Assembly (NCBI GenBank): GCA_963755455.1
Contig: CAVWJH010000001.1
Coordinates: 58,861-122,860, forward strand
Direction: 5' to 3'
Origin: an uncultured Verrucomicrobiae bacterium
Lineage (GTDB): Bacteria > Verrucomicrobiota > Verrucomicrobiia > Limisphaerales > UBA11358
DNA: 64,000 nt
The notes beneath the pieces are model-generated. The model worked only from the letters and a program-made list of their open reading frames with translations. It was not told where the DNA came from and did no database searches. Positions 25,290-26,591 of this stretch are shown here, piece by piece. Numbering within the stretch: the stretch's first letter is position 1; each line of letters opens with the position of its first letter. The position numbers and the translations under genes were made by a program.

Positions 25290-25489
25290 TTTTGTCAATG
25301 AAAACGCGGGTTCTGTGGATGTTGAAGCACCACGACGCTTTGAACGCGCCTTCGCGCGGCTGGAAAAAGATTTGCGCACCAGTCTTGGGAAATAACGCTC
25401 CGCACCGGCATATTTTCGTCCTGCCGGACAACCTTTTTGGTCGAAAGTGCCACTTTTTTGGCAAAACCATCAAAAATGAAGATCAAAAG

Positions 25490-25763
25490 TTGAATCTTGG
25501 GCTTTCCGAGTTCAACTATGGTTGCTCACAGGTTCAACATTTGAATCCAAATCCTCAACCTTCGGATGCCAGGGTTCAACTTTGAGGCTCCCGACTTCAA
25601 CCTTTGGATCCAAATGTTGAACATTTGGACTCAAATCTTCAACTTTGGTGTTCGCGACCTGAACATTTGGATGTCAGACCTCAACTCTGGCGTCCGGAAG
25701 TTCAACTTTTGGACGCCAGACTTCAACCTTTGAATCCAAGACTTGAACTCTGGAACATCAAAG
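25490..25763. repeat. 13 tandem, strictly phased 21-bp repeats (core TTCAAC-N-TTTGGA)
   Basis: Core starts are at 25490, 25511, 25533, 25554, 25575, 25596, 25617, 25638, 25659, 25680, 25701, 25722 and 25743. Eleven intervals are 21 bp and one is 22 bp. Confidence 0.9.
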
Positions 25764-25888
25764 TCGGTCTTTAATGTGCGCCGGTTCTTGCGAACGACCA
25801 CCATAGTCGGTCACAGACCGCCGCGACATAATCTCGCCGCCTTAAAACCTTGCGTTTGCAATCCAGTCGGCTTTCCTGATGACGACGT

Positions 25889-26591
25889 GAATGCGATTGA
25901 AATCAAGACCGGCACAAAACTTCAGCCCAAAGATTATTGGCGGCTTTGGGTTTTGGATACCGTGCTGGTGAGCGCGGGCTTTCTATTTTGCCTGGCCACG
26001 CATTACGGCACCTACGAGTTCTTCGGCACGGCCTGTGCGATGGCCTTGTTGCCGCTGATTCCGGTCATGGTGCTGGTCGGGGGCGCGGGCAGCACCGTTT
26101 TCGCCCTGACCAAGATTTGGATCGAGAAGCGTGCGCTGAATGTTCCAGCGGCGCTGGCGTTGCTGGTCGGCCCTGCGCTGGTGGTGACTCTGCTGCTTGC
26201 GCTGTTGGGCGCAGGCAAATCTCCCGGTCACAGGCTGGCCTACATTTGTCTGGGAAACGCCCCCGCGTCTGCCAGTCATGTCCAGGTCGCCGGCTATTCA
26301 ACGTTCCTGCGCGAGGAATGGCTGGCCGTGTTCCACGTCGGGCCGAAGGATTTTCAAACGATGGTCGCCGGGGCGAAGCTTGTGCCGGTGGACGGTTTTG
26401 AATTCAGAAAAATGCTCGAACAATCGGCTCTGAAAAGAAGCTGGCTGTTTGGACGCATTCCGCCGCTAAACAATCTGACGTGCTACAAGCGCGTCTTCAA
26501 TGAACAGGAGGAGCGCAAACTCGGCAGCGTTTATGCTGTGTTTGATCCAGCCGCCTCGACTGCGGCTGTCTATCGGGAATATCACGAGTGA
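25889..26591 (+). CDS. hypothetical membrane protein (about 4 TM helices plus soluble C-terminal domain); start uncertain
   Basis: The ORF is open from 25743, which is the last repeat unit. The first plausible start after the repeats is GTG 25889. No motif was recognised. Confidence 0.5.

Follow-up and report, generated by a model that had tools for sequence, protein, structure and literature searches.

What are the thirteen short repeats that lie between a tRNA gene and the gene for a membrane protein in the DNA of an uncultured Verrucomicrobiae bacterium (Limisphaerales, UBA11358; GenBank assembly GCA_963755455.1, contig CAVWJH010000001.1, positions 58,861 to 122,860, forward strand)? A preliminary description of this 64,000-nucleotide stretch, hereafter called the window, offered two answers: that the repeats form a protein-binding array resembling plasmid iterons, or that they are what is left of a decayed or recoded gene for a heptad-repeat protein spanning 25298 to 26591. 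As set out below, the array is real and non-coding, and it shares its geometry with a class of fast-evolving arrays of Limisphaerales-type Verrucomicrobia that is tightly linked to a family of ArsR-like winged helix-turn-helix (wHTH) proteins. We therefore discuss it foremost as a predicted phased operator or scaffold for a protein of this family. Positions are those of the window, L-numbers are labels of related loci, and units of the type found in the window array are referred to as W-type.

The array and a degenerate unit at its 3′ end are as follows.

25490 to 25763, + strand: array of 13 units of 21 bp plus 1 extra base, defined by row layout, periodicity and collinearity with L002
25764 to 25784, + strand: degenerate 14th unit, TCGGTCTTTAATGTGCGCCGG, orthologous to ACGGCCTTTGGACGCGCC of L002

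Laid out in 21-nt rows, the 13 units span 274 bp and start at 25490, 25511, 25533, 25554, 25575, 25596, 25617, 25638, 25659, 25680, 25701, 25722, and 25743. Eleven of the intervals are 21 bp and one (25511 to 25533) is 22 bp, with the extra base at 25532; the unit coordinates, copy number, and spacing of the preliminary description were thus reproduced exactly. The units follow the consensus TTCAAC(n)TTTGG-nnnn-CCARAS, in which A4, A5, T9, G11, and C16 are invariant or nearly so. Lag-21 identity in a 253-nt block of the array was 0.53, compared with a window-wide mean of 0.279 (standard deviation, 0.035) and with maxima outside the array of 0.379 (lag 21) and 0.435 (any of the lags 5 to 99). 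Similarly, 14 of the 21 matches to YTSAACNNTNG in the window fall within the array, 11 of them on the + strand and in exact phase; shuffled sequences yielded 9.9 ± 3.0 matches per whole window. The array core is clustered solely at this site in the 64 kb, and no second array with a 21- or 42-bp period was found elsewhere in the window. Because the units are only ∼55–80% alike, Tandem Repeats Finder reports just 2.6 copies (25595 to 25648). The units are contiguous, and an array of clustered regularly interspaced short palindromic repeats was rejected because there are no spacers between the units and because the units are 55–80% alike rather than identical. An earlier worry that the periodicity might be an assembly artifact is answered by orthologous arrays in independent assemblies (L002 = L011 = L086; L036–L039 and L088). 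Overall, these results confirm the array as real, with a periodicity far beyond what chance would give.

The units display dyad symmetry around TT-S-AA and around GG-AT-CC. Both GTT-S-AAC and TTTGGATCCAAA are dyads, and, for example, the 14-nt palindrome at 25596 to 25621 is 93% complementary. The TTC/TTG changes that had been taken as synonymous in fact arise from the palindrome GTT-S-AAC, whose central base is flipped. Further, T-runs (positions 7–9) alternate with A-runs (positions 17–20) ∼10.5 bp apart. Identity at lags 42 and 63 (0.64) exceeds that at lag 21 (0.57 in this comparison), which indicates a higher-order structure in which multi-unit blocks were duplicated.

Downstream of the array lie a conserved motif and the gene to which it belongs.

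25841 to 25886, + strand: conserved putative promoter/5′-leader motif TTAAAACCTTGCGTTTGCAATCCAGTCGGCTTTCCTGATGACGAC, from comparison of orthologous loci
25887 to 26591, + strand: gene for a 234-aa membrane protein, start set by nine orthologues

The gene starts with the GTG at 25887, as 9 of 9 aligned orthologues begin at an equivalent GTG or ATG (MNA...). Its product has N-terminal transmembrane helices and a C-terminal α/β domain. The 453 homologues, all hypothetical and without a Pfam domain, are confined to Verrucomicrobia subdivision 3/Limisphaerales. The protein has no match in Pfam, NCBIfam, or PADLOC, and its AlphaFold2 model (mean predicted local distance difference test score, 74.8) gave no significant fold match in the PDB. 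As a candidate binder of the array it was rejected, showing no sign of a DNA-binding domain. The 45-nt motif (cATAAAACCTTGCGTTTGCAAnCCAGTCGGCTTTCCTGA...) 5′ of 25887 is kept in nearly all of ∼100 orthologous loci; it holds the −10-like CATAAAAC, the counterpart of which in L004 is preceded by TTGACA-N16. The array is placed 80–350 bp upstream of this putative promoter, its 3′ end being ∼80 bp from the −10-like motif. In related loci (L001, L016, L037, L044, and L071; e.g. L037 2000–2449), the array or wHTH gene is often separated from the membrane gene by the gene for a single-domain response regulator (∼150 aa, N-terminally extended), which suggests a putative three-gene module of wHTH protein, receiver, and membrane protein. 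The response regulator of the window itself (27542–27979) looks unrelated to the inserted one, with no similarity on inspection.

The closest view of selection on the array is provided by L002, where the gene product is 74% identical at the amino acid level and the array likewise has 13 units, collinear with those of the window. Core positions of the two arrays are 77–100% identical (A4 and A5, 100%; T9, 92%; C16, 85%), whereas spacer positions 12–15 are 15–31% identical, which is near random. There is no indel over 273 bp except the single extra base of the window array, and the flanks just beyond the array carry 6-nt and 40-nt indels. Because core, unit number, and phase were kept while the spacer became saturated, this sequence comparison shows the phase, unit count, and core of the array to be under constraint.

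To define the wider class, ∼110 loci encoding the same 234-aa protein were collected and scanned for periodicity. Approximately 25 of these orthologous loci carry arrays 5′ of the membrane-gene cluster, made of ∼10 unrelated families of unit sequence, and most orthologous loci are without an array. The periods in the ∼25 loci are 21, 41/42, or 63 bp without exception, and across ∼780 kb of related DNA the non-coding arrays all have periods of 21, 41/42, 63, or 83/84 bp, i.e. whole helical turns. The remaining periodic matches (684 kb) have periods that are multiples of 3 and lie within or downstream of coding sequence; a single upstream exception, in L032, was confirmed to be inside an open reading frame (ORF). 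The unit families that were distinguished in addition to W-type units include the following.

L001: AAAACCCAnAnTGCG
L019/L109: GGACAGCTGTCCGGAGnCTTG
L060/L110: GTTCCCGGnTCGTCCG
L027/L072/L071: AAATGATTTTT..GGCAC
L054: CAAATCAGCAGTTTGGTTGCG
L016/L075: TTTTTAAGGAGC..GAGGCTTGTA
L045: GATAGATGC..GTTCC.GTAAAT

W-type units were seen, among the matches listed, only in L002 (= L011 = L086), L036–39/L088 (4 units), and L190 (14 units). When three phased W-type cores were scanned for, unrelated 21-bp repeats turned up in many phyla; among the matches listed, the relevant loci were L169 (= L002) and L190, and the match in L187 was set aside as a 3-copy perfect repeat of a different kind. The 14-unit array of L190 (2271–2560; TTCAACnTTTGSRTYCRCAGG) occupies a different locus, downstream of hemC, and is followed by TTTGCCAATAAAAG and an unknown ORF. 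Copy number thus varies among W-type arrays (4, 13, and 14 units), as it does between L109 (7 units) and L019 (11 units). A contig of an Akkermansia muciniphila metagenome-assembled genome (L176 5198–5408, CAMCXO010000019.1) bears ten near-identical 21-bp units, ACTTTTGGGAATGGCATTTGA, in a non-coding-looking position, flanked by the end of a recQ-like gene on one side and by a HicA-like gene on the other; the wHTH gene described below was not found within 8 kb of it.

Several loci contain a small ORF that either separates the array from the membrane gene or is divergent from the array. Its product, group A, is a wHTH protein of ∼105–145 aa in which the C-terminal motif D[FY]GxCxLR is invariant (alignment A2). 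A search of the PDB with the group A profile found the ArsR structure 6j0e (E 2e-10) and also SmtB and NmtR; Pfam HTH_20 and NCBIfam HTH_metalloreg were matched, the scores being under the family cut-offs of both collections. Judged by these profile matches, the group A protein is an ArsR/SmtB-like winged-helix protein. Arrays adjoin group A genes in L016, L045, L053, L054, L055, L070, and L075/80. The order is array and then wHTH gene in L016, L045, L053, and L075/80; in L054, L055, L070, and L037, the wHTH gene diverges from the array, so that the latter faces the membrane gene. The wHTH gene of L037 has merely a weak, degenerate array of its own. W-type units co-occur with group A genes in L036–39 and L088, ∼330 bp apart in L036–39. 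Canonical ArsR genes (group B) also occur beside some loci, mostly without an array, and were rejected as the array partner since, apart from L060, they are unlinked to arrays.

As an independent test, a protein database was searched with alignment A2 (519 matches), and homologues on long contigs were looked up. Among the sampled homologues with DNA (L112, L114, L115, L117, L119, L120, L121, L241, L242, and L243), 10 of 10 have an array of 21-, 42-, 83-, or 84-bp period in the gene-free gap directly 5′ of the wHTH start, and all ten contexts are unrelated and lack the membrane gene. The division into array families I, II, and III parallels that into wHTH subfamilies. The tight linkage of the array class to the group A wHTH family is the strongest result of this analysis.

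A proximal motif, GGCArTTsATTC(C)GTCCGAr ... TTTGCCAATAAAAC, is common to four group-IV wHTH genes and stops ∼10 nt short of their start codons (L119 3938–4000, L120 3938–4000, L121 2041–2103, and L037 1318–1360 on the − strand). The array units of these genes hold TTTGGCAATAGGA-like copies of the motif, and the units of L001 likewise resemble the promoter motif CATAAAACC, which suggests that arrays may arise by tandem duplication of the promoter/operator region. The wHTH-array modules of L112, L117, L121, L075, and L045 often sit amid mobile or defense-type genes, with DUF433/DUF5615 and ribbon-helix-helix (RHH)/PIN toxin-antitoxin pairs, Abi_alpha, TIR, C5-methyltransferase/endonuclease, HNH, and IS1595 genes in their flanks; others adjoin NDH-2 or SBF/ACR3-like transporter genes.

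Where does this leave the array in the window? It is non-coding, consists of at least four contiguous units, has a 21/42-bp period and partial dyad symmetry, and in these respects it fits the class; it does not share the remaining feature of the class, an adjoining gene for an ArsR-like protein with D[FY]GxCxLR. On balance we lean, by a little over even chances, toward a phased multi-site operator or scaffold that is predicted to be bound cooperatively by an ArsR-like dimer encoded in trans. According to this proposal, ∼13 quasi-palindromic sites, one per two helical turns and all on one face of the DNA, would be bound cooperatively by dimers of a group A protein whose gene would lie beyond the 64 kb of the window. 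The nucleoprotein complex formed on the array, filament-like or wrapped, would set transcription of the adjacent membrane-protein gene; where an array precedes a wHTH gene, the same complex would autoregulate that gene. The conserved cysteine of D[FY]GxCxLR is a candidate signal-sensing residue. Binding, its cooperativity, the sign of the regulation, and the identity of the paralogue that would bind in the window are the elements of this scheme that we infer. Of the original suggestion of a protein-binding, iteron-like array, the protein-binding half has gained ground, given that the array is non-coding, holds dyads, keeps a two-turn phase and a conserved core, and belongs with arrays that adjoin wHTH genes in 10 of 10 sampled cases, and membership in the iterons or ParR-type centromeres has to be given up.

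Several results weigh against the proposed operator. The 64 kb of the window contain no group A wHTH gene (best E in hmmsearch, 0.13), and such a gene is also absent within 6 kb of the L002 array; within 8 kb around the L190 array there is neither such a gene nor a homologue of the membrane gene. The window array is thus an orphan, as are those of L001, L002, L019, L027, and L190, and its binder is hypothetical here. A consensus scan of 25100–26000 for a sigma-70 promoter was empty. The window and L002 differ by 47 bp (4.5 turns) in the distance from array to −10-like motif, which counts against a face-specific contact with RNA polymerase. Moreover, wHTH proteins that are 63–83% identical (L037, L119, L120, and L121) go with different unit sequences, and the protein of L242 is 65% identical to family I yet has a non-family-I array; because similar wHTH proteins are found with unlike arrays, strict sequence-specific co-evolution is not demonstrated. 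Finally, the W-type units of L037 form a second array, distinct from the degenerate one that belongs to its wHTH gene.

A broader proposal, which we put forward tentatively as possible and not as probable, is that a group A protein and its adjacent 21/42-bp array make up a self-contained, fast-diversifying module in Limisphaerales, a protein plus a phased landing pad, in which geometry and not sequence is conserved. The protein might coat or wrap the array into a segrosome- or nucleosome-like particle, and orphan arrays might be landing pads in trans that draw unlinked genes under the control of the module. The roles would then be architectural, centromere-like (independent of a nucleoside triphosphatase (NTPase), as for StbA), or those of a defense-island regulator rather than of ordinary operators.

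Some of the same facts could be accounted for by a structural DNA element in which only the period is selected, the small bends of any unit that recurs at two or four helical turns summing to a curved or wrappable segment that would be read by a shape-sensing nucleoid protein or RNA polymerase, with the wHTH link secondary. That the 21/42/63/84-bp period is kept across ∼10 unrelated unit families, that alike wHTH proteins have unlike arrays, and that T-runs and A-runs alternate at about one helical turn in the window all speak for such an element. Several families (L019 GGACAGCTGTCCGGAG, L060 GTTCCCGG.., and others) are G+C-rich and without A-tracts, however, and specific core positions, beyond the period, are common to the window, L002, L037, and L190. 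The 10/10 linkage to one DNA-binding family is also hard to explain without binding, and we regard selection on geometry alone as unlikely.

The junction upstream of the promoter motif is plainly prone to change, and this bears on whether the array is a functionless minisatellite, produced by slippage or unequal crossing-over and left behind in the window as a relic after loss of a wHTH gene. In L033 and L034, the closest relatives (89 and 84% amino acid identity), homology to the window ends exactly at the promoter motif; the DNA 5′ of the motif is unrelated, and L033 carries a different array, of 41 bp. We take this stop of homology, together with the different array, to define a hypervariable junction. 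The variable copy number and the lack of an array in most orthologous loci fit a minisatellite as well, and so does the presence in the same gap of fragments of a dispersed element that resembles repetitive extragenic palindromes (REP) or miniature inverted-repeat transposable elements (MITE).

25324 to 25395, no strand assigned: fragment of the dispersed REP/MITE-like element (..GCCTTCGCGCGGCTGGAAAAAGATTTGCGCAC..), by blastn against related loci
25778 to 25839, no strand assigned: second fragment of the dispersed REP/MITE-like element (GTCGGTCACAGACCGCCGCGACA), by blastn and comparison with L002

Copies of this element, 80–90% identical, were found by blastn at many sites of related loci, up to 6 per locus (in L077, up to 6 copies in 6.7 kb). 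Its pieces include GCCTTCGCCCGGCTGGAAAAAGATTTGCGCAC and GTCGGTCACAGACCGCCGCTACA, the latter belonging to a long hairpin in L002 (5519–5575). Approximately 40 nt of the fragment at 25778–25839 are an insertion relative to L002 and move the array away from the promoter. A dispersed REP/MITE satellite was nevertheless rejected as the identity of the array itself, because the core is not scattered and only the flanking fragments at 25324–25395 and 25778–25839 are dispersed. At the same junction, L007 and L025 (L007 5501–5840) have ∼3 copies of a ∼147-bp tandem repeat of a different kind 5′ of the orthologous membrane-protein gene, containing the hairpin GCGGACA-TTCC-TGTCCGC. What makes a minisatellite without function quite unlikely is the retention of core, unit number, and phase relative to L002 despite saturated spacers, with no indels over 273 bp, and the fact that neutral slippage leaves the ∼10.5-bp-multiple periods of all non-coding arrays unexplained.

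We also weighed a transcribed RNA element, either a repeat-bearing 5′ leader or a small RNA that acts as a Csr/Rsm-like protein sponge, with one hairpin or GGA per unit. The region folds far better than shuffled sequences (z about −7), GGA is present in 6 of the 13 units, and the orientation of arrays is constant relative to the downstream gene; in L045 and L114 the array reaches the start codon, so these are partly transcribed. The two strands fold equally well, however (z −7.07 versus −7.01), and position-pair statistics over 44 W-type units revealed no conserved nested pairing and no G-U strand bias. GGA is not kept in L002. Rfam searches found only tRNA (window region at E ≤ 10; nine array loci at the gathering score), and no promoter-like site or convincing terminator brackets the array, the sole terminator-like match in 25100–26000 being inside the gene. 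An RNA element is accordingly very unlikely.

The two-turn spacing also invites comparison with a plasmid-like element, integrated or former, of which the array would be the replication iterons or the partition centromere. Iterons and parC, sopC, and tubC arrays have this geometry; type III repeats precede the small wHTH gene tubR and also act as its operator (PMC6009700); and the wHTH-array modules of relatives are often found among mobile and defense genes (restriction-modification, toxin-antitoxin, abortive infection, TIR, and insertion sequence genes). The neighbors of the array in the window are, by contrast, ordinary chromosomal genes, i.e. those for a radical SAM enzyme, trpE, a ubiE-like gene, a response regulator, an ECF sigma factor, tmk, and nuo (Pfam). 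As had been observed before, no rep, par, or integrase gene is adjacent, which held among the Pfam-scanned neighbors in the window, and rep, parA, parM, tubZ, and integrase genes were absent both from the vicinity of the window array and from all 10 sampled wHTH loci. A blastn search with 25440–25900 gave no match in 72,556 plasmids or 50,697 phages, and a tblastn search of plasmids with the wHTH protein gave only weak, generic ArsR matches. No plasmid or origin context was recognized, with no search aimed at DnaA boxes. A plasmid origin or centromere is thus highly improbable. An IS1595-family transposase gene (DDE_Tnp_IS1595 and zinc ribbon) is present at 18430–19368, 6 kb upstream of the array, and a related transposase occurs near the array of L045. 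Further downstream, at 26466–27426 on the − strand, a UbiE/COQ5-like methyltransferase appears to be split over the overlapping ORFs 26466–27257 and 26881–27426, the former matching only positions 46–164 of the 233 of the Pfam profile; this could be a frameshift or a pseudogene.

Two features remain on the distal side of the array.

25216 to 25289, + strand: tRNA-Gln(UUG), ARAGORN; Rfam tRNA, 64 bits
25448 to 25489, + strand: A/T-rich distal flank with the inverted repeat TGCCA-CTTTTT-TGGCA and the motif TTTTGGCAAAAC, by reading of the sequence

The tRNA-Gln(UUG) gene, which the preliminary description had placed beside the array, was located there by ARAGORN; its proximity is incidental because a tRNA gene is absent from the corresponding position of 8 of 8 orthologous loci. 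The flank was compared with L119, L120, L121, L037, and L190, and its TTTTGGCAAAAC appears to resemble the promoter-like motif TTTGCCAATAAAAC, which occurs ahead of group-IV wHTH genes and 3′ of the L190 array.

A decayed or recoded gene for a heptad-repeat protein can be dismissed for practical purposes: although one frame of the window reads [F/L]-N-x-[W/G]-x-x-x, its only stops being TGA codons at TGG positions, and runs in frame into the ORF 25743–26591, in the orthologous array of L002 every one of the six frames is interrupted by at least three stops, and the FN repeat frame there is not in register with that of the downstream gene. Six-frame translations were made of the window, L002, and L001 arrays, and L002 supplies precisely the kind of orthologous array, with stops in all frames, that the preliminary description had named as contradicting a coding role. 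The two TGA codons (25542–25544 and 25731–25733) do fall where sister units have TGG, as can be read from the sequence; TGA is also the functional stop of the membrane-protein gene itself (26589–26591). The frame link to the ORF 25743–26591 is a mechanical extension only, given the true start at 25887. Likewise, the ATG at 25298 is indeed in frame with units 1 and 2, but the ORF to which it belongs (25127–25585) crosses the tRNA gene and the dispersed element; this ORF and that at 25276–25395 are spurious and arise from the fragment at 25324–25395, and the small upstream ORF has no protein-family match. Comparison of the units position by position, another check that had been suggested, located conservation in core positions 1–11 and 16, with spacer positions 12–15 near random and no pattern of period 3. 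Other array families are unable to encode related peptides. The array is non-coding, and the lesson for annotation is that repeats with a period of 7 codons and stops at TGG positions are not necessarily a recoded gene; palindromic DNA sites account for the pattern in this array.

If the proposed operator is true, an ArsR-like family would use long phased arrays of 4–20 sites, with fast-changing sequence and fixed period, in place of a single palindromic operator. Group A has at least 519 database members, so far all from Verrucomicrobia-type metagenome-assembled genomes and metagenomes. Such arrays would offer a natural system for cooperative, face-of-helix assembly of wHTH proteins on chromosomal DNA and an example of a regulator and a cis-array that diversify rapidly together, and they would give the first regulatory handle on a conserved, uncharacterized membrane protein of peat, soil, and lake Verrucomicrobia.

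How do these arrays compare with known systems? With phased A-tract upstream activating regions they share a position just 5′ of a promoter and a helical-repeat periodicity, but many array families are G+C-rich, and specific bases rather than A-tracts are conserved. Plasmid iterons (RepA, π, and TrfA) and lambda O sites are 17–22-bp repeats with ∼two-turn spacing, winged-helix binders, and lineage-specific sequence. The window array has the ∼two-turn spacing of such 17–22-bp direct repeats; it differs in having no initiator gene, plasmid backbone, or plasmid/phage similarity, in its 13 units (up to ∼20 in relatives), which are above the usual number, and in that the associated protein is a single wHTH domain of ∼110 aa. 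In parC/ParR, sopC/SopB (12 × 43 bp), the omega heptads, and stbDR/StbA, phased and partly inverted short repeats serve as centromere and operator beside the gene for the binder. Those systems are plasmid-borne and use other folds (RHH or ParB-type HTH). A binder gene beside the array is absent from the 64 kb of the window and present in 10 of 10 relatives, and ParA, ParM, and TubZ are not in the Pfam lists of the sampled wHTH loci or of the scanned window neighbors. A report on StbA describes such a module as able to work without an NTPase of its own (10.1101/2022.04.29.490116). Evidence for a segregation role of the arrays studied here was not found.

The likeness to ArsR/SmtB operators rests on an ArsR/SmtB-like associated protein and on units that are imperfect inverted repeats. 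Classical ArsR/SmtB operators are one or two 12-2-12 inverted repeats that overlap the promoter, in contrast to the 4–20 strictly phased sites over 90–500 bp found here, and group A proteins have the C-terminal D[FY]GxCxLR in place of the known metal sites. Half-sites similar to TGAACA/TGTTCA are present in the W-type core, and we take them to resemble SmtB/CzrA operators.

TubR has an ArsR-like fold, and tubC is built of short (∼12 bp) direct repeats. These repeats are upstream of the small wHTH gene, and the protein polymerizes on them into a segrosome and also represses the promoter of its operon (PMC6009700). With several repeats directly 5′ of a small winged-helix gene, tubC/TubR is the closest working analogue of the arrays described here. 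It differs from them in that no TubZ or other motor gene is beside any sampled array/wHTH gene, in that the present arrays are chromosomal, with 21/42-bp periods and dyad symmetry, and in that the window array is without an adjacent wHTH gene. Our literature searches found no description of such arrays. Overall, iterated phased protein-binding repeats are a known kind of element, whereas the combination of an ArsR-like protein with hypervariable 21/42-bp chromosomal arrays, orphans included, appears to be new.

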